Origin: a virus
Direction: 5' to 3' (one strand)
Length of the DNA stretch: 64,000 nucleotides
Virus record (IMG/VR): IMGVR_UViG_3300030060_003910
Span: 1 to 64,000 of that record
A program made the position numbers and the translations under genes. Positions 9,533 through 46,563 of this stretch are shown in pieces. The stretch's first letter is position 1; the number at the start of each line of letters is the position of its first letter. A model generated the notes under the pieces. That model searched no databases. It saw nothing but the letters and a program-made list of their open reading frames with translations, and was not told the origin of the DNA.

Positions 9533-9778
9533 TCATGCCGTATTTGTTGAGTTTAGTCTTACAGAAATGCCATAATCATTTGAACTAATTTGGTAAGGGT
9601 AAGGAATACCCCAAATTAACTCATAATGGTCTGTGAAAGCCTTGATGAAGCGGTCAGCATCAAAACGCCCATTATCACGACGAAACATGAGAATCATGCT
9701 TTCAATGACTGGAACGGTAATGCCGTTCAATTCTGCTAAGGTTTCTGCTATCTTTTGGTAGTGCCTTCGTTGGAACAT
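9533..9778 (-). CDS. Cassette gene, hypothetical (MFQRRHYQKIA..., about 81 aa)
   Basis: Internal ATG at 9778 lies about 25 bp downstream of CCTTATA, implying a leaderless archaeal-type mRNA. Confidence 0.65.
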   Translation of the reverse strand: MFQRRHYQKIAETLAELNGITVPVIESMILMFRRDNGRFDADRFIKAFTDHYELIWGIPYPYQISSNDYGISVRLNSTNTA

Positions 9779-9892
9779 GATTAACCGCTTGATAAGCGGA
9801 TATAAGGTTTTATTACCAAAGTATGCAACCATATGGTAATTGCTTTGGTTTTACCTCAAGCAGTTTAGACCCATGCTTAGGGGTATTTGGGT

Positions 9893-10156
9893 TTAGATAA
9901 CCTTAGAGGCTGCCCAAACCTCAAGTTTTTGGACATCTTCGCTTCCAAGCGGGTTTTTCCGTGGAGTTGGGAAACCATGTATTTCACGATAATCGCGCAG
10001 ACCAAAACGACGGTTCAATTTATTGTTCACATATCTTTTCATTTTTTGATACTTATTCCAATGTATGTGGGAATAACCCAAACCGTTCATCTCATTGAGA
10101 CAAAACTCTTCCCCGCTAATTTTGCACACTCCCGTTATGGCTTTTTCTTTGCTCAT
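9893..10156 (-). CDS. Cassette gene, hypothetical (MSKEKAITG..., about 87 aa)
   Basis: ATG at 10156 lies about 25 bp downstream of CCTTAATA in the cassette arm. Confidence 0.6.
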   Translation of the reverse strand: MSKEKAITGVCKISGEEFCLNEMNGLGYSHIHWNKYQKMKRYVNNKLNRRFGLRDYREIHGFPTPRKNPLGSEDVQKLEVWAASKVI

Positions 10157-10271
10157 GTTAAACATTAAATTAATCATTTATTAAGGTTTTATCCAAAGTA
10201 TCAAACCATATGGTTAGGCTTTGCATTAACCCCATATAGGGGCTTCACAGGGGAAAACGCCGTGAAGAGCA

Positions 10272-10787
10272 TCATTCTTCCTCGGAAACCTCCATATCTG
10301 CTTTCACAGGGGTTGGCGTGATTTGAGGAACTCCGTCCTCAACAGCGAGTCCATCCCAACGATTTTCCTTAATGGCCTTGACCATGTAAGAATGCGCCTT
10401 ACTGCGGAAGGAATCAACCAATTCGCTAAAGGAGCCATAAACGCCGCCGGTTCGTCCGTGTGGCACAATAACCGATAGAATCATGTTGTGGTATTCAGTA
10501 GGGATTGCAGCAATAGCACCTGCCACTTTTTCCTCCACAGTCGCCAAAACAAGTTCCTGTTCGTCCGAAAGCGTGGATTCTCGCCCTCGTCGTGCCGCAG
10601 GAAAACCCTCCATAGTAGAGCCAATTGAACGAATAGCCGTCCAATAGGTGCTTCGCAGTTCATCTGTTCCCGCATTATCGCCCAAAGTGAGCGAAAGGAG
10701 AACAGCATTCAAGTTGTCGCTTTTTGGCTGTGTTTCAGCCCAAGCCCGCACTTTGTTTGTGTTCAATGTCCAATTCTTCATCTTCAT
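10272..10787 (-). CDS. Cassette gene, paralog family member 1 (LRSTYWTAIRSIGS / FPAARRGRES / PHGRTGG / RWDG)
   Basis: RBS GAGGTG before ATG 10787; clear similarity to 11410..11916. Confidence 0.8.
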   Translation of the reverse strand: MKMKNWTLNTNKVRAWAETQPKSDNLNAVLLSLTLGDNAGTDELRSTYWTAIRSIGSTMEGFPAARRGRESTLSDEQELVLATVEEKVAGAIAAIPTEYHNMILSVIVPHGRTGGVYGSFSELVDSFRSKAHSYMVKAIKENRWDGLAVEDGVPQITPTPVKADMEVSEEE

Positions 10788-10952
10788 TTTTTTCACCTCT
10801 TTCCTAAAAAAGATACTCCGCGTCGTTTTTCCCCTGTGGAGCAATAACCCACGGAGGTTGGCGTATAAGGTTGTTCCTACGCAAAGCGATTAACAACCAT
10901 ATGGTGTTACTTTGTTAATACCCTAAACAATACGACAAACAAGACATAAGGC

Positions 10953-11201
10953 ATGAACAAAGACAAAGCAAACCACATTATGAACCTTCTCGCAAAAACC
11001 TTTCCAAGCCTTGAACCGTGGCTTACTCGCCAATACATGGATGCCGTTATGAAGGATATGATACTCTATGCCGATGAACCACACGCTATGATTGGATTAG
11101 CGGAGATGGCCGCAAGTATTGAGGCTTTTGCTGATGCTATCGCTGAAGCCTCAATTGAAGAGATGTTTCATATTATGGCCGACATGATGGGGGGTGTTTG
11201 A
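10953..11201 (+). CDS. Cassette gene, Met/Ala-rich hypothetical protein (inverted cassette)
   Basis: 82 aa; in the only + strand cassette; ATG about 26 bp after CCCTAAA in the arm. Confidence 0.6.
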   Translation: MNKDKANHIMNLLAKTFPSLEPWLTRQYMDAVMKDMILYADEPHAMIGLAEMAASIEAFADAIAEASIEEMFHIMADMMGGV

Positions 11202-11363
11202 ATGATTTCCCATTGTCCTACTTGTAGTGCAGAATTGGCTAAAGATGATTTCATGTCTTTCGCTTTCATCTTAGGAGGCGATATTTGCCGTCATTGTCTT
11301 GATGACGGCCCTTCGGGGTCAAAAAAACAAAGCATGACCATATGGTTGTGCTTTGCCAGTTGA
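11202..11363 (+). CDS. Small Zn-finger protein reading through the 11338 site
   Basis: MISHCPTC...ICRHCLDD...MTIWLCFAS, 53 aa, starts right after the previous stop; not in the ORF track. Confidence 0.5.
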   Translation: MISHCPTCSAELAKDDFMSFAFILGGDICRHCLDDGPSGSKKQSMTIWLCFAS

Positions 11364-11409
11364 AAACGAAACCCCACCCGTAGGTGGGGCTGCGAGGGGA
11401 AAACCCGCA

Positions 11410-11916
11410 TCATTCCTCTTCTTGACCTCCTTCAGCCGATTTCACGGCAGGTGGGGTCAATGCTGGGATTTCACCGTTCATGGTTCCATCCCAACGACCT
11501 TCTTTGTAGCCCTTAACGAGAGCGTCATAGGCCTTTTTGCCCATTGACTGAGCCAAAGCCATGATGTCCTCAAATGCGCCACCAGTTCGCCCATGAGGGA
11601 GAATAACGGCGGTAATGAGGTCAGGGTTAGAAATGCCCGCAAAGGCAGTAATAACCGCATTCTTCACAGAAGTCGCATTTAGGTCTACTTCTTCGGGCAA
11701 AGATGATTCTCGGCCTCGGCGGGCGGCTGGGAAATCATCATAAGGACTCCCAATTGAGCGAATTGCTGTCCAATAGGTGGAGCGCAAATCATCGCTATCC
11801 GTTGCATTTCCAAGTGTAATAGACAAAGAAATGGCTTGACCCACTTCTCCCCTATCTTCAAGTTCAAGCCATGCTTGAACCGCATTTGTGTTTTTAATCC
11901 AGTTGTCTTGCTTCAT
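11410..11916 (-). CDS. Cassette gene, paralog family member 2
   Basis: RBS GGAGG before ATG 11916; shares the motif blocks of 10272..10787. Confidence 0.8.
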   Translation of the reverse strand: MKQDNWIKNTNAVQAWLELEDRGEVGQAISLSITLGNATDSDDLRSTYWTAIRSIGSPYDDFPAARRGRESSLPEEVDLNATSVKNAVITAFAGISNPDLITAVILPHGRTGGAFEDIMALAQSMGKKAYDALVKGYKEGRWDGTMNGEIPALTPPAVKSAEGGQEEE

Positions 11917-12101
11917 AATCAATTCCTCCAAAAAGGTTTGATGCGTCCGTTTTCCCCTCGGAGCAACCAATGGCGACCATAGGCGACTATGGTTGCTTTT
12001 TCATTAACACTCGCAAAGCGAAAAGCAACCATATGGTAATGCTTTGTTATTTACCCCAACGCTCCGCTATTAAGGGCATTTGAAGGGGTTATTACACTAT
12101 C

Positions 12102-12218: not shown

Positions 12219-12344
12219 TGTTCTTCCTAAGTGGGTATGCTCTTAATTTATTGATTTAAATCCTTAAAGCCCTAATTTAAATTTTAGCAGGGTATTTATA
12301 ACAAAGCAACAATACCATATGGTTGTTGTTATGCTTTGCAGTAA

Positions 12345-12926
12345 TAAAAACCATAGCGAAGGCTTCACCAAACGGACAGGGAAAAGCCTATGTTGGTTGC
12401 TTTTTGCGCTAATTTGTCCGTTTGGTGTGTGAGTAAAATAAAACGCCGCCTACTCCATACATATCCGACTAACCACGCTACTTTGTTTCCTCTCTCGTAG
12501 TCTTGAATAAATCCCATGGAATAAATTCAAGCGGAGTTTCTTTCACGATTTATTGCGCTGTGTTTCGGCTTTGTTTCACTATGGTTTTATGGCCACTAAT
12601 AGCCATAGGAATGTGAAGGGTGGGATGAAGAATTGGGTATCTCCAAGTATGATGCGATTAGGTCGCACTCATTTTGAACGCTCTAATTGTTCTTAAGAGC
12701 CATACTGCCGACTTCGTGAAGTTGGTTTGTGGCCAACCGCCTTTTGAGCCTTAATCACTTTCACAGGGAACAATTAATCTATGCCACTTGGCCGTCATAA
12801 CTGCTTTGTGTCCCACAACAGGAGAAATCGCACATTACCCCCGTTCAAAGGGCATTGATGTTAATCCCCTCCGGGGGGAGCGACCCCCCGAAGCAATAGA
12901 ACCGAGCGATTATCGCTTATGGTTCT
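12345..12926. ncRNA. Candidate large structured non-coding RNA filling one cassette
   Basis: No ORF of 60 aa or more inside; stems CACCAAACGGACA/TGTCCGTTTGGTG (12367-12427), AAAACCATAGCGAA/TTCACTATGGTTTT, CTTGAAT/ATTCAAG, CCGACTTC/GAAGTTGG, CGGGGGG/CCCCCCG (12872-12890). Confidence 0.55.
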
Positions 12927-13003
12927 CCATGTGCAAAGCAATATAGAACCATATGGTTTTACTTTGGTTAAACCCCTCAGCAATTGCTTCACAGGGGGGA
13001 TAA

Positions 13004-14169: not shown

Positions 14170-14646
14170 ATGGATGATACCACATGGGAAAGCCTCGTCA
14201 TTGAGGTGAACGAATACCTAGAAGCCGACACTACGCTTGATGCTGGATTGCGTCAGGTCGTTGAACTGAACCTGCAAATTGGGACAAACAACCCCGATGA
14301 GCGAACTGCCGCCGAAGGTGCGCTTAAAGCACTTTTGAAGGGAAGAGATGGAACCCCGTTCCGCCGAGGCCAAAAGAGCGCAGTTCCAGCCGCAGTTCGT
14401 GTTTCAATTGACCGAATCTGTGGAGTTGTTGAAGAAGCCTCTATTGGCTACTACAACCATGATGCAGTTATTGGTGCAATTACCATGAAGCACATCAAAT
14501 CTGGTGGCGGTGCTTATGATGACGCAGAAGATTACGCTTCTGCTGTTGTTAAGCGAACCCGAAACAATCTTGGCAAAATGTTCAAGAACGGTTCTTGGGA
14601 CGGTAGCGTTGATTCCCTTTTAGGAAACGACGAAACCACGCTTTGA
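14170..14646 (+). CDS. Distant third member of the cassette paralog family
   Basis: PFRRGQKS, HIKSGGGAY and KNGSWDG align with PAARRGRES, HGRTGGAF and KEGRWDG. Confidence 0.7.
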   Translation: MDDTTWESLVIEVNEYLEADTTLDAGLRQVVELNLQIGTNNPDERTAAEGALKALLKGRDGTPFRRGQKSAVPAAVRVSIDRICGVVEEASIGYYNHDAVIGAITMKHIKSGGGAYDDAEDYASAVVKRTRNNLGKMFKNGSWDGSVDSLLGNDETTL

Positions 14647-14739
14647 GATTAAAACCTCAATAAGCAACATCTCAGGTCTATGACCTGAACAACGGGGAAT
14701 AGGGAGCCAAGGCTCCTTATTCTCCCCTTTTCCACACAT

Positions 14740-14795
14740 GGGGGAAGAGAGGCGCATGAAAATGTGGCTTGGGCCAAATCCTCTCTTTCCCCGCC
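14740..14795 (+). ncRNA. tRNA-like small RNA candidate (13-bp terminal stem plus GCC)
   Basis: GGGGGAAGAGAGG/CCTCTCTTTCCCC, internal GAAA tetraloop hairpin, preceded by CACAT. Confidence 0.45.
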
Positions 14796-14808
14796 TTTGG
14801 GTGGTTTA

Positions 14809-15066
14809 ATGCGTTTAGTTGAAGAAGTTTTTGTTAAGGCTAAAGAGGATTTAATCTGCCAGTCTTGCGGTGTTGATATACCAAAAGACAGCAACCATCT
14901 TCTTGAGTCTTATGTTCATCATGGCGTTATTTCAACCAGTCATTACTGTTTAAACCCAAAGTGCAATCCACCTAATAATGTTCGTTTGAAGTTATTTTGG
15001 GGAACAATAGTCATAGGGGCTTCTCTGTGGCTAATCTACTTTTTCTATCAAAACGCAGGGCTTTAG
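14809..15066 (+). CDS. Zn-finger protein with C-terminal transmembrane helix
   Basis: CQSC...HYC...C plus a hydrophobic tail; ATG 14809 preferred over GTG 14764, which lies inside an RNA hairpin. Confidence 0.6.
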   Translation: MRLVEEVFVKAKEDLICQSCGVDIPKDSNHLLESYVHHGVISTSHYCLNPKCNPPNNVRLKLFWGTIVIGASLWLIYFFYQNAGL

Positions 15067-15072
15067 GTCTAT

Positions 15073-15148
15073 TCGCTTAGGCGACCCGTGGCCCCGCAAC
15101 ATATACGCCCTCGGCAGGTGGGGGTATGCTTGAACAGTCGCCAAGCGA
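15073..15148 (+). ncRNA. Structured small RNA candidate
   Basis: Closing stem TCGCTT-A-GGCGAC/GTCGCC-AAGCGA with a GC-rich interior; intergenic. Confidence 0.4.
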
Positions 15149-43273: not shown

Positions 43274-44977
43274 ATGATAATTAGCAGAATGAATGATGGA
43301 AATAGAATATATAAATCTTGGAGAGAAAACGGAGAGAAGAAACACGAGATTGTTCCCTTTCGGCCTTATTTTTATGTTAAGGAAGATAGCGCAGAACCAT
43401 TTGAATATAGACCTTCTAAATATATTAGTCGGGAGTTTGAGTATATTCGTGGTGATTGGGTTAATCTTGACAACGAGCCATTGAAGAAAGTCATTGTTGA
43501 AACTTCTCACGATATGCGAAAAGCAAAGGATATGTTCGGTGAAACCTATGAAGCCGATGTTCCCTTTCACTTTCGGTATTGTGTTGATGAGTTAGATGAA
43601 ATGCCAGAATACAAACTGCGTAAGTGGTATTGGGATATGGAATGGCAACAAGGTGGTGATTATCACGACCAATTGACTACAATCGTTGTTTATGATAATT
43701 ATGACGAAGAATACATTCAATGGGTTTGGTGGCCTAATTTCCCATTCAAGGAAGAAACCACCCAAAAAGATTTGGCTGATGTTATTTTAGAAGGAGATAT
43801 TTGCCCACCCTCTAACTGTGCTGTGCGTTTTTTCTCATCAGAAAAAGATATGATTGAGGATTTTATGAACACCATGATTGTAAAAGACCCCGATATGCTA
43901 ATTGCTTGGTTTGGTCATTTTGCTGATTTACCAAAGTTATTTGAACGGGCTTGTGCGGTGGGTCTTGACCCTCGCATTATTTCACCAACGGCAACAGTTA
44001 AGGGAGTAAAGTCTGTAAAAGATGGCTTTGAGTTTAAATATTCCGAAAAAGGTTTTTCACCAATTGAACAACCTATTGGTGGACGAATTACACTTTCTTT
44101 GGACTTGGCCTTTGAAAGACAATGGAATGATTCTCAAAGAGGAACATTACCTTCTCTTTCTCTTGATTATATCGGTGAAACTGTTCTTGATAAGAAGAAG
44201 TTAGTATCGGAAAAATTTCCTGATACTAACGAATTTTATCGTAGGGGTTGGTTAGAAGATACAGCAACTTATCTTCAATATGCTTTAAGAGATGTTGAAT
44301 TGATGGTTGAGATTGATGAAACTAATTTTTGTAGTGAAGCAATTGTTTCTCTTCAACGACTACTGAAAGCACCATTTGATGCTTGTTTCTATGCTTCTCA
44401 CATGGGTTCTATTTACTTTATGAGAAATGCTTGGTGGAAAGCACCAACGGGTAGCAAAGTGGATAAAAGACAAGAATATGAAGGTGCTATGATTTATGAC
44501 CCATTAAGTGAAGAAACAAACGGACTACATTTGAATGTAGCCGCTTTTGATTTTGCTGGTCTATACCCTTCAATGATGATTGCTCGCAATATCAGTTGGG
44601 AAACCAAATCTCAAGAACCAACAGAATTTGCAGTTAATATTCTAACTCCTAGAGACTTTAGCGAAACCAAGCATGAACAGATGCTCTATTACAAAACAGA
44701 TGAACTCGGCCTACTACCAAGAGCCGTCCTTGAATTGAAGGAGTTGCGAAATGAATATAAACGACTGATGCGAGAGGCAAGAGAAACGGATAATGGCGAG
44801 TATGTAAAGTGGTATAACAATCAAATGGCAGTAAAGCGATTAATGGCCTCTTTTTACGGCATTGTTGCTTTTCAAGGATTTGGATGGGCTGATGTAGATT
44901 TAGCAGCATCTATTACCGCAAGTGCAAGAGAAGCAATTAGATTAGCGGCGTTTGCTGCAAAGGAGATGGAAGTATGA
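43274..44977 (+). CDS. polB: Family B DNA polymerase, N-terminal part (exonuclease plus motifs A and B)
   Basis: RPYFY, DMEW (ExoI), YALRD (ExoIII), YEGA, DFAGLYPSMM, KRLMASFYG. Confidence 0.92.
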   Translation: MIISRMNDGNRIYKSWRENGEKKHEIVPFRPYFYVKEDSAEPFEYRPSKYISREFEYIRGDWVNLDNEPLKKVIVETSHDMRKAKDMFGETYEADVPFHFRYCVDELDEMPEYKLRKWYWDMEWQQGGDYHDQLTTIVVYDNYDEEYIQWVWWPNFPFKEETTQKDLADVILEGDICPPSNCAVRFFSSEKDMIEDFMNTMIVKDPDMLIAWFGHFADLPKLFERACAVGLDPRIISPTATVKGVKSVKDGFEFKYSEKGFSPIEQPIGGRITLSLDLAFERQWNDSQRGTLPSLSLDYIGETVLDKKKLVSEKFPDTNEFYRRGWLEDTATYLQYALRDVELMVEIDETNFCSEAIVSLQRLLKAPFDACFYASHMGSIYFMRNAWWKAPTGSKVDKRQEYEGAMIYDPLSEETNGLHLNVAAFDFAGLYPSMMIARNISWETKSQEPTEFAVNILTPRDFSETKHEQMLYYKTDELGLLPRAVLELKELRNEYKRLMREARETDNGEYVKWYNNQMAVKRLMASFYGIVAFQGFGWADVDLAASITASAREAIRLAAFAAKEMEV

Positions 44978-45669: not shown

Positions 45670-46563
45670 ATGAAAGTGGTTTATGGACATACTGATTCTA
45701 TCTATGTGCAAATTGATTCCGTAGAAGCCGCACAAAAAGCAATTAAGGTGATTGAAGATGAAGTCAAAAAAAGTTTCCCGAATATTCTCGGACTTGAACA
45801 GCATCCCGTTAGTCTGGAGTTTGAGAAGTATTATTCGGCGTTGGGTGTTGGAACAACCAAAAACAGAAACGCAGGGTTAGTATCTTGGGAAGATGGAGAA
45901 TGGTTAGAAAAGCCCAAGTTTAGTATGACTGGATTTACGGCAAAGCGTGTTAGTGAAACTAAATTGGCTAAACATATTCAAACTGAAACTCTCAAAATGT
46001 GGGTTGAAGGTAAAACACAAGCAGAAATTGTGCATTATCTACACCGACAATATACAATGGTTCTTGATGGAGAATTGAGTATAATGCCTCTTATCAAAAG
46101 AAGCCGTCTGAGGGAAAATAGGTTCATGGTAAAATGCCCCGAATGTAATACAAAGTATCATGTTCGTGATTGTATTAACTTGAAACATAAGGTATGTGAA
46201 AAGTGTGCAACAGAAACGACTAGATTTACAACCCTTGATGGAAAGAAACCCACATTTGGTGCTGGTATTGCAGGTGTTTTGTATGCTTGGGAAAAGAAAG
46301 ACACTAATTTTGATGATTCTTATATTTATTTAAAAGTAAAGGGCGTAAATGATTTTTATACTCATCCTTTAACGCAAGAAAGGCGAGAAGTTGAATACTT
46401 ATCAGGCACAACCGCTAAGGATTTTAGCGGTTATCGTCCAGACCTTGCGTTCTATGCCTCGCAGGTGGTAAAGAAGGCCGAACCGATTTTCAAGGCGATG
46501 GATTGGGATATATCGGCCATACGGACGGGGAGATTACAGGCAAGCCTTGATGAATGGTGGTGA
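45670..46563 (+). CDS. polB: Family B DNA polymerase, C-terminal part (motif C, thumb, Zn-finger insert)
   Basis: YGHTDSIY, LEFEK, KNRNAG, CPEC...CEKC, C-terminal QASLDEWW PIP-box. Confidence 0.9.
   Translation: MKVVYGHTDSIYVQIDSVEAAQKAIKVIEDEVKKSFPNILGLEQHPVSLEFEKYYSALGVGTTKNRNAGLVSWEDGEWLEKPKFSMTGFTAKRVSETKLAKHIQTETLKMWVEGKTQAEIVHYLHRQYTMVLDGELSIMPLIKRSRLRENRFMVKCPECNTKYHVRDCINLKHKVCEKCATETTRFTTLDGKKPTFGAGIAGVLYAWEKKDTNFDDSYIYLKVKGVNDFYTHPLTQERREVEYLSGTTAKDFSGYRPDLAFYASQVVKKAEPIFKAMDWDISAIRTGRLQASLDEWW

Follow-up and report, generated by a model that had tools for sequence, protein, structure and literature searches.

The first 64,000 nucleotides of the complete 94,354-bp virus record IMGVR_UViG_3300030060_003910 (here referred to as the window) carry two paralogous small genes on the minus strand, each flanked by a gene-specific inverted repeat whose halves we call the 5′ and the 3′ arm. 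The arms are complementary stretches in the two untranslated regions (UTRs), 5′ and 3′, of one and the same predicted transcription unit. They stay complementary through compensatory changes among homologs, are restricted to one gene family, and hold a fixed position relative to a promoter box and the stop codon. We consider it probable, though well short of certain, that the two UTRs pair in cis on the RNA and thereby control the stability or translation of each paralog's message. Pairing between the UTRs of one message, kept by compensatory change, had been proposed for this DNA in an earlier note based on the two cassettes (each gene with its arms), and an alignment of 38 sequences now supports it well beyond these two. 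New with respect to that note are the archaeal setting with a predicted start at the arm, the folding of the arms as hairpins, a GC-rich hairpin abutting the 3′ arm, and the restriction to a gene family.

Complementary arms and their conservation

Both pairs of arms were recovered in a repeat search of the window, and their coordinates are collected in Table 1. As reported earlier, CACAGGGGAAAACG (10246-10259) faces CGTTTTTCCCCTGTG (10824-10838) in cassette 1, where GAGCATC (10267-10273) also faces GATACTC (10812-10818) with one U·G pair on minus-strand RNA, and CGAGGGGAAAACCCGCATCA (11393-11412) faces TGATGCGTCCGTTTTCCCCTCG (11939-11960) in cassette 2. The helix indeed reaches the stop codon, TGA being the first triplet of the 3′ arm. 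RNA folding, one of the checks proposed in the earlier note, placed the long-range helix in the minimum free energy (MFE) folds of both cassettes as minus-strand RNA (z-scores of −2.4 and −7.2). For the two paralogs, the upstream flank pairs with the downstream flank at −51 and −49 kcal/mol, compared with a median of −15 kcal/mol for the 77 non-overlapping open reading frames (ORFs) of the window, among which the paralogs rank as the top two by a wide margin; none of the other small genes of the array has comparable 5′/3′ complementarity. The third-best flank duplex of the window belongs to ORF 14809-15066, which shows scattered pairing only, with no clean long-range helix, and is flanked by GC-rich local hairpins at 14734-14803 and 15073-15125 (e.g., GGGGGAAGAGAGG...CCUCUCUUUCCCC).

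The two paralogs share 47% identity. A third, distant paralog (23% identity) lies at 14170-14646 on the plus strand, as the first gene of the rightward replication module, and no 5′/3′ arms were found at it; the arms are therefore a trait of the two-gene subfamily only. Within this subfamily, each 5′ arm prefers its own 3′ partner, as had been claimed, when judged by duplex energy (−37.0 and −35.0 kcal/mol for cognate arms versus −19.6 and −27.9 kcal/mol for cross-paralog arms). The covariation that the earlier note saw between the paralogs is weak, however, because the cores of the two are nearly identical in this genome (GGGGAAAAC); the strong covariation comes from the homologs. Similarly, the core-to-core distance is 691 bp in both cassettes (10205 to 10896 and 11337 to 12028), but it is not a constant, and since it ranges from 677 to 726 bp among homologs, the equal spacing is a coincidence.

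The encoded protein has 243 homologs in marine metagenomes. We collected 108 loci from these metagenomes, which yielded 90 cassettes with distinct flanks, and all 90 retain the gene-specific inverted repeats despite sequence change; the loss of UTR complementarity, which would have spoken against the proposal, was seen in none of them. In a strand-symmetric alignment of the 5′ arm with the reverse complement of the 3′ arm, own-arm complementarity scored approximately 32 in all 90 cassettes, whereas non-cognate arm pairs fell to approximately 15 when the proteins were less than 65% identical. The arm sequences themselves are diverse (GGGGAAAAACG, GGGGGAUAACAGA, GGGCUGAAAC, GGUAGGCAUGAAG, GGAGUAACAAAC, and GGGAAGAUUGGC), each still matching its own partner. 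At several loci (L053, L086, L095, L111, L113, L025, and L077), related viruses carry both paralogs, each with its own arms. Some genomes (this window and L095) have nearly identical cores in the two paralogs, which makes cross-pairing between the two paralog messages possible there; in others, the cores differ.

For covariation, 38 diverse whole cassettes were aligned with MAFFT without regard to structure (alignment A3). The long-range helix was the one conserved structure of appreciable size that RNAalifold recovered, and 10 of its 14 pairs were compensated. Over the full long-range structure, 84% of the alignment cells pair, 24 of 30 pairs have changed on both sides, and the double-sided changes amount to 111 cells. 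The covariation score was 0.296, compared with 0.127 upon shuffling (none of 500 shuffles reached the observed value) and at most 0.108 when the partner was slid by 1 to 3 columns, controls that remove shared ancestry only in part. Columns 27-29 covary with columns 697-699 (e.g., CG16 GC8 AU4 UA4), and at pair G17-C709, 34 of 35 sequences have G-C. In the MFE folds of all 38 predicted full-length transcripts, 15 or more pairs join the first 35 nucleotides (nt) to the last 80 nt, and nt 5-15 pair with the 3′ end with a mean probability of 0.88. The 5′ arm ends 19 to 32 nt ahead of the ATG, leaving the ribosome-binding site (GGAGG or GAGGUG, at approximately −14 to −7) outside the helix, and the 3′ arm begins 0 to 13 nt from the stop codon and is directly adjoined by a GC-rich hairpin (hairpin 2) and a short U-rich tail. 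Collectively, these comparisons argue strongly that the long-range pairing is kept by compensatory change.

Each arm is also able to fold by itself. In the main clade, the 5′ arm contains CUUCAAG...CUUGAAG and the 3′ arm contains CUACAAG...CUUGUAG, and two recurrent mismatches of the long helix are compensated inside each arm. Column 20, for example, is U·U in the long helix in 29 of 38 sequences and forms a standard local pair in 28 of 38 (UA 15, UG 7, CG 3, AU 3). The local hairpins reached a covariation score of 0.173, compared with 0.107 upon shuffling and at most 0.074 for slid partners. Furthermore, the loop of the 5′ hairpin (columns 25-31) covaries with the loop of the 3′ hairpin (columns 695-701), for which local folding cannot account, and the two kinds of covariation together indicate that both the local and the long-range form are under selection. 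The conserved G4 core of the 5′ arm and C4 core of the 3′ arm are located in the two loops, which suggests that pairing starts there; in cassettes of the paralog-2 type, the 3′ partner is mostly single stranded and not in a loop. The first contact would thus most likely be made loop to loop, or loop to single strand, through the G4/C4 core, and be able to spread to an imperfect duplex of 23 to 27 bp.

Predicted message ends in a magrovirus genome

The genome encodes a family B DNA polymerase (PolB) as two ORFs (43274-44977 and 45670-46563, approximately 700 bp apart), a class II-like ribonucleotide reductase, a Cpn60 chaperonin, an RFC-like clamp loader, an ERCC4/HhH nuclease, an ATP-dependent ligase, tRNA-Leu, and tRNA-Arg. 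The closest cultured relatives of the polymerase are haloarchaeal tailed viruses. A split PolB, ribonucleotide reductase, a GroEL-type chaperonin, tRNA-Leu plus tRNA-Arg, and a genome of approximately 65 to 100 kb are the traits of group B magroviruses, viruses of Marine Group II Euryarchaeota described by Philosof et al. (PMC5434244). All of these traits are present, and by its gene content the record is a group B magrovirus whose host would be a Marine Group II archaeon. A crAss-like phage identity had been suggested by a 2061-amino-acid (aa) ORF and by relatives of approximately 95 kb, and it was dropped after the PolB matches and the gene set pointed to magroviruses; no PDB sequence match was found for the 2061-aa ORF, and the crAss-like phage paper reports no early-promoter motif. 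The magrovirus literature that we searched makes no mention of promoters, repeats, or UTRs, and an Rfam scan of the region from 8.5 to 15 kb gave zero matches above threshold.

Since the virus is a group B magrovirus, archaeal transcription rules apply. A TATA-like box lies 28 nt ahead of the 5′ arm in both cassettes (counted from the first C of the box in cassette 1), preceded by the palindrome ACCATATGGT. When the upstream regions of homologous cassettes (73 unique ones) were aligned at their 5′-arm starts, a conserved CAACC(T/A)TATAC box emerged, after which come an AT-rich stretch and, where the arm begins, T|G. Measured from the first C of CC(T/A)TA to the arm's first G, the distance is exactly 28 nt in 57 of 72 regions and 27 to 31 nt in 68 of 72; the spacing between arm and ATG, in contrast, is variable (45 to 65 nt). 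The archaeal TATA box is centered approximately 26 nt before the start site. Given the 28 nt between the TATA-like box and the arm, each paralog message probably begins at the arm's first base (10842 and 11964). Transcript ends inside the paired segments had been named as an observation that would contradict the pairing; the start is predicted at the outer end of the 5′ arm and not within it. No pattern of short contigs ending at the predicted transcript ends emerged among the collected loci.

TABLE 1 Features of the two cassettes (positions in the window)
Feature	Position	Strand	Description
Cassette 1 promoter region	10863-10914	minus	Palindrome ACCATATGGT (10896-10905), CTTTG, TATA-like box CCTTATAC (10870-10863)
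Cassette 1 5′ arm	10812-10842	minus	GCUCCACAGGGGAAAAACGACGCGGAGUAUC; predicted first mRNA base 10842; can form a hairpin on its own, −7.0 kcal/mol
Paralog 1	10272-10787	minus	171 aa, all-helical; ribosome-binding site GAGGUG at 10794-10799
Cassette 1 3′ arm	10242-10274	minus	First triplet is the stop codon UGA (10274-10272); can fold alone as hairpin 1 (CUUCAC...GUGAAG)
Cassette 1 hairpin 2	10228-10243	minus	GCCCC-UAUAU-GGGG, then UU; abuts the 3′ arm; terminator-like; 92% paired as helix 4 of the homolog alignment
Cassette 2 promoter region	11985-12046	minus	Palindrome ACCATATGGT (12028-12037), CCATAG box (11992-11987)
Cassette 2 5′ arm	11939-11964	minus	GCUCCGAGGGGAAAACGGACGCAUCA; predicted mRNA start 11964
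Paralog 2	11410-11916	minus	168 aa; ribosome-binding site GGAGG at 11925-11929
Cassette 2 3′ arm	11389-11412	minus	First triplet is the stop codon UGA (11412-11410)
Cassette 2 hairpin 2	11362-11390	minus	GCCCCACC-UACG-GGUGGGG, U-rich tail UUUCGUUUUC

The palindrome ACCATATGGT occurs in nine copies in the 94-kb genome, all of them within 9.3 to 13.5 kb. Each copy is the inner part of a longer palindrome (CAAAG-N-ACCATATGGT-N-CTTTG), and two copies enclose every small gene of the array; between 9172 and 13444, a CC(T/A)TA(A/T)A box follows each palindrome. The units resemble repeats of an archaeal promoter module that has a putative site for a dimeric regulator, and each delimits one small gene. 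In three neighboring cassettes, the same box lies 28 to 31 nt ahead of an in-frame ATG, at 9778 (minus strand), 10156 (minus strand), and 10953 (plus strand). For genes 9533-9832 and 9893-10177 (both minus strand), the start of the longest ORF falls inside or beside the promoter, and the internal ATGs at 9778 and 10156 are the likely true starts; gene 10953-11201 (plus strand) has its ATG at 10953, at the same distance past the box. This arrangement suggests that the messages of the neighbors are leaderless, whereas those of the two paralogs would have leaders of 45 to 59 nt. The cassette at 12323-12947 contains no convincing ORF and is rich in nested GC-rich helices, including a perfect 13-bp stem (12367-12379 with 12415-12427), with CUUCGGGGGGUCGCUCCCCCCGGAGG near 12870-12895. 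We regard it as a candidate structured noncoding RNA, for which Rfam gave no match.

The protein encoded by the paralogs was modeled by AlphaFold as all-helical (pLDDT of 83); its Arg/His loops are conserved, and its tail is acidic. No match to it was found in Pfam or PHROGs, in a profile search against PDB, or in the ESM Atlas, and structural comparison of the AlphaFold model by Foldseek and VIA-align returned generic helical bundles only (best Z of 8.0 over 59 residues). A collection of cultured phages contained neither a DNA nor a protein match to the cassette.

Probable pairing in cis on the RNA and competing explanations

The observations can be combined into the following working model. 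Each paralog would be expressed as its own message of approximately 600 to 620 nt, whose start is set by the archaeal TATA-type promoter at the first base of the 5′ arm, so that the first 30 or so nt of the message would be complementary to approximately 30 nt starting at the stop codon. The arms would fold singly as hairpins whose G-run and C-run loops touch first, and this contact would spread into the imperfect 23- to 27-bp helix with its conserved U·U mismatch, stacked on the second, GC-rich 3′ hairpin. Such a helix would conceal the predicted 5′ triphosphate end from exonucleases and, together with hairpin 2, the 3′ region as well. A ribosome arriving at the stop codon would have to open the inner part of the helix, tying the life or the translation of the message to ribosome traffic. 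Given that the helix would hide the ends and that the ribosome must open it at the stop codon, we favor a closure of the ends in cis that sets stability and is tied to translation, and we infer that protection of the ends and coupling to ribosome traffic are its two components. As the helix leaves out the ribosome-binding site, there is no indication of a plain block of initiation of the icaR kind.

A further step can be imagined, in which the panhandle stacked on the 3′ hairpin puts the first nucleotide beside the 3′ end on one continuous helix. A terminating ribosome would then be passed to a start site approximately 50 nt away or, in the extreme, the ends would be joined to give a circular translatable mRNA. 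We hold this closed loop to be quite improbable; if true, it would constitute an archaeal-virus counterpart of the eukaryotic closed-loop mRNA, achieved by RNA pairing alone.

Several points weigh against pairing in cis on the RNA. The start and the end of the message are predictions, not mapped positions, and the T-run that follows hairpin 2 is short (2 to 4 T), which is weak for an archaeal terminator. With the ribosome-binding site outside the helix, a simple translational block is not evident, and a protein without a known family offers no biological rationale for a device confined to that family. Equilibrium folding leaves out ribosomes and cotranscriptional folding. Finally, in the core helix (columns 21-31 with 695-705), G·U and A·C combinations are equally frequent (approximately 8 each), which leaves the strand, and hence the choice between RNA and DNA, unsettled in this part, and neither the overall G·U bias described below nor the Wilcoxon test takes relatedness into account.

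Four observations speak for RNA of the sense strand. The 5′ arm is tied at its outer end to the promoter box, as the 3′ arm is to the stop codon, and folding of the 5′ hairpin is favored by 2.2 kcal/mol on the sense over the antisense strand. Over all tested pairs, G·U outnumbers A·C by about 2:1, and A-to-G changes leading to U·G in the 5′ stem are seen in three separate groups of cassettes that differ otherwise, which we read, by inspection of the sequences rather than from a tree, as independent. The G·U counts are moderate evidence for the sense strand. They bear on the explanation, unlikely in our judgment, that the arms are inverted repeats acting at the level of DNA, be it a lox- or hix-like binding or recombination site with an asymmetric spacer that serves gene inversion, DNA looping, or the ends of a mobile unit, or cruciforms and single-stranded DNA (ssDNA) hairpins in replication. 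In its favor, an asymmetric core is surrounded by a short palindrome in each arm and is present in opposite orientation in the two arms, an appearance shared by recombination sites with identical spacers; the gene and its arms have been duplicated as a whole unit, and G·U and A·C are balanced in the core helix. However, hybrid arms, or a gene turned around with respect to the promoter box and hairpin 2, occur in none of the 90 distinct cassettes, the complete 94-kb genome yielded no tyrosine or serine recombinase (integrase, resolvase/invertase), and the encoded protein resembles no transposase or recombinase family or fold. The same observations set the arms apart from invertible segments of the hix, gix, or lox-like kind. 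Locking of the 5′ arm end 28 nt from a TATA-like box is expected of a transcript start and not of a mobile-element end, the 3′ arm starts at the stop codon, and the 5′ hairpin shows a G·U bias on the sense strand. The difference between U-A in the 5′ arm and A-U in the 3′ arm is retained from lineage to lineage, which argues against homogenization of the arms. The ssDNA intermediate of an integron-type cassette, which the earlier note had offered as an option, finds no support: the arms are inverted and not direct as they would be around an attC cassette, and neither an integrase or resolvase in the genome (no tyrosine recombinase, in particular) nor a hybrid arm among the 90 cassettes was found.

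The remaining explanations keep the RNA and change what it does. In its shape, the 3′ end resembles a 3′-UTR-derived small RNA: a seed hairpin comes first, then a GC-rich hairpin of terminator-like form and a U-rich tail. If hairpin 1, hairpin 2, and the U tail were released or made separately, the C-rich loop could pair in trans with the G-rich 5′ loop of other copies of the message, giving negative feedback as by OppZ and CarZ in Vibrio, a principle that is documented (PMC7398697). Selection on local hairpins in both arms would fit this idea, and loop complementarity is usual in antisense systems. The complementarity, however, runs past the loops into both stem halves and the very first bases (G17-C709), which a seed does not need, the target would lie 10 to 30 nt upstream of the ribosome-binding site, and neither a processing site nor an internal promoter was identified. 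As pairing in cis predicts the same covariation, the data do not favor action in trans, which we regard as improbable. We give a very small chance to the idea that the panhandle is a signal for processing or circularization, either cut by the splicing endonuclease in the manner of the stems flanking archaeal rRNAs or bringing together ends that are joined into a circular message. The host is an archaeon, in archaea the inverted repeats on either side of rRNAs are cut and joined into circles, and a panhandle on hairpin 2 would set the predicted 5′ end beside the 3′ end. The bulge-helix-bulge motif (two 3-nt bulges, 4 bp apart) was absent from both cassettes and the main clade upon inspection of the duplexes, without a formal motif search, which makes cleavage by the archaeal splicing endonuclease unlikely; the irregularities of the helix are 1×1 mismatches and variable internal loops, and for the end chemistry that circularization requires there is no evidence. 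Processing by RNase III, in the style of T7 early mRNA, was downgraded because the host is archaeal and, to our knowledge, most archaea lack this enzyme. Recoding of the stop codon by the downstream hairpin was likewise rejected, as some homologs use TAA and the frame past the stop is not conserved. The slimmest chance goes to two independent, ordinary elements that merely look alike, a stabilizer hairpin at the 5′ end and a terminator hairpin at the 3′ end. Each local hairpin is conserved and could serve a purpose by itself, but the covariation of the two loops across lineages (columns 25-31 with 695-701), the loss of complementarity between non-cognate arms, and the absence of the feature from all other genes of the window argue against independence. 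Pairing of the two UTRs in cis on the RNA thus remains the explanation that we favor.

Significance and comparison with known systems

Base pairing that joins both UTRs of a single prokaryotic mRNA has been described for few bacterial genes, whose 3′ UTRs are poorly conserved (PMC7821165). The complementary arms are a trait shared with messages that pair in cis in this way (icaR, hbs, and RNAIII type). In the present family, the pairing is kept in all of the approximately 90 distinct cassettes examined (of 243 protein homologs), which come from oceans worldwide. The hosts, Marine Group II, belong to the marine archaea of greatest abundance and are not culturable. The cassettes offer a testable model of how archaeal messages, which have neither a cap nor a poly(A) tail, could link both of their ends. 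As a by-product, our analysis provides a predicted promoter grammar for the early-gene array of magroviruses, with a box 28 nt before the start and leaderless neighbors.

In the full-length hok mRNA, the 5′ end is paired to the 3′ end, and the likeness to the present messages led the earlier note to consider fold-back inhibition of the hok type. We do not find the accompanying features here: the product is a 171-aa soluble helical protein with an acidic tail and not a small membrane toxin, no small toxin ORF and no overlapping mok-like frame is present, the translation signals, including the ribosome-binding site, are free, and there is no evidence of an antisense RNA gene, although antisense promoters were not searched for. 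The 5′-3′ elements of RNA viruses, such as the cyclization sequences of flaviviruses and the 3′ translation enhancers of plant viruses, resemble the arms in having hairpins at both ends with complementary loops or stems, and these end hairpins can switch between local and long-range pairing. They act, however, on the RNA genomes of eukaryotic viruses, in replication or cap-independent translation, whereas the arms described here belong to the mRNA of a double-stranded DNA virus of archaea.

For archaea, the earlier hint is functional and comes without structure: in Haloferax volcanii, both UTRs are jointly needed for translation control, an interaction that the text describes in functional terms, with no terms of complementarity or base pairing (PMC2636863). 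The likeness lies in an archaeal message that needs both of its UTRs; the difference is that here the evidence consists of pairing with covariation. Among bacterial messages, the 3′ UTR of Staphylococcus aureus icaR contains a UCCCC motif that pairs with the ribosome-binding site, creating a duplex that is a substrate of RNase III (Ruiz de los Mozos 2013, as summarized in PMC7821165). As in icaR, a C-rich 3′ motif (UUCCCCUG in the 3′ arm) would meet a G-rich stretch in the 5′ UTR of the same message. This likeness is less close than that to hbs, however, since in our cassettes the G-run is a separate element 30 to 40 nt upstream of the start codon, the ribosome-binding site (GAGGUG/GGAGG) is free, and the 3′ arm does not pair with it.

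The nearest studied case is hbs of Bacillus subtilis, a short monocistronic message in which pairing of approximately 14 nt between the 5′ and 3′ UTRs affects mRNA stability in a manner linked to translation (Braun, Durand and Condon 2017, as summarized in PMC7821165). The likeness lies in 5′ UTR-3′ UTR pairing, predicted in the present case, within one short prokaryotic message. According to the same summary, the hbs interaction is not conserved in close relatives, whereas the covariation in our alignment extends across a whole gene family. Moreover, the present pairing concerns a viral gene in an archaeal host, is longer (23 to 27 bp, imperfect), includes the predicted first nucleotide and the stop codon, and joins two partners that both fold as hairpins, and the protection from nucleases that it may provide is one that we infer.

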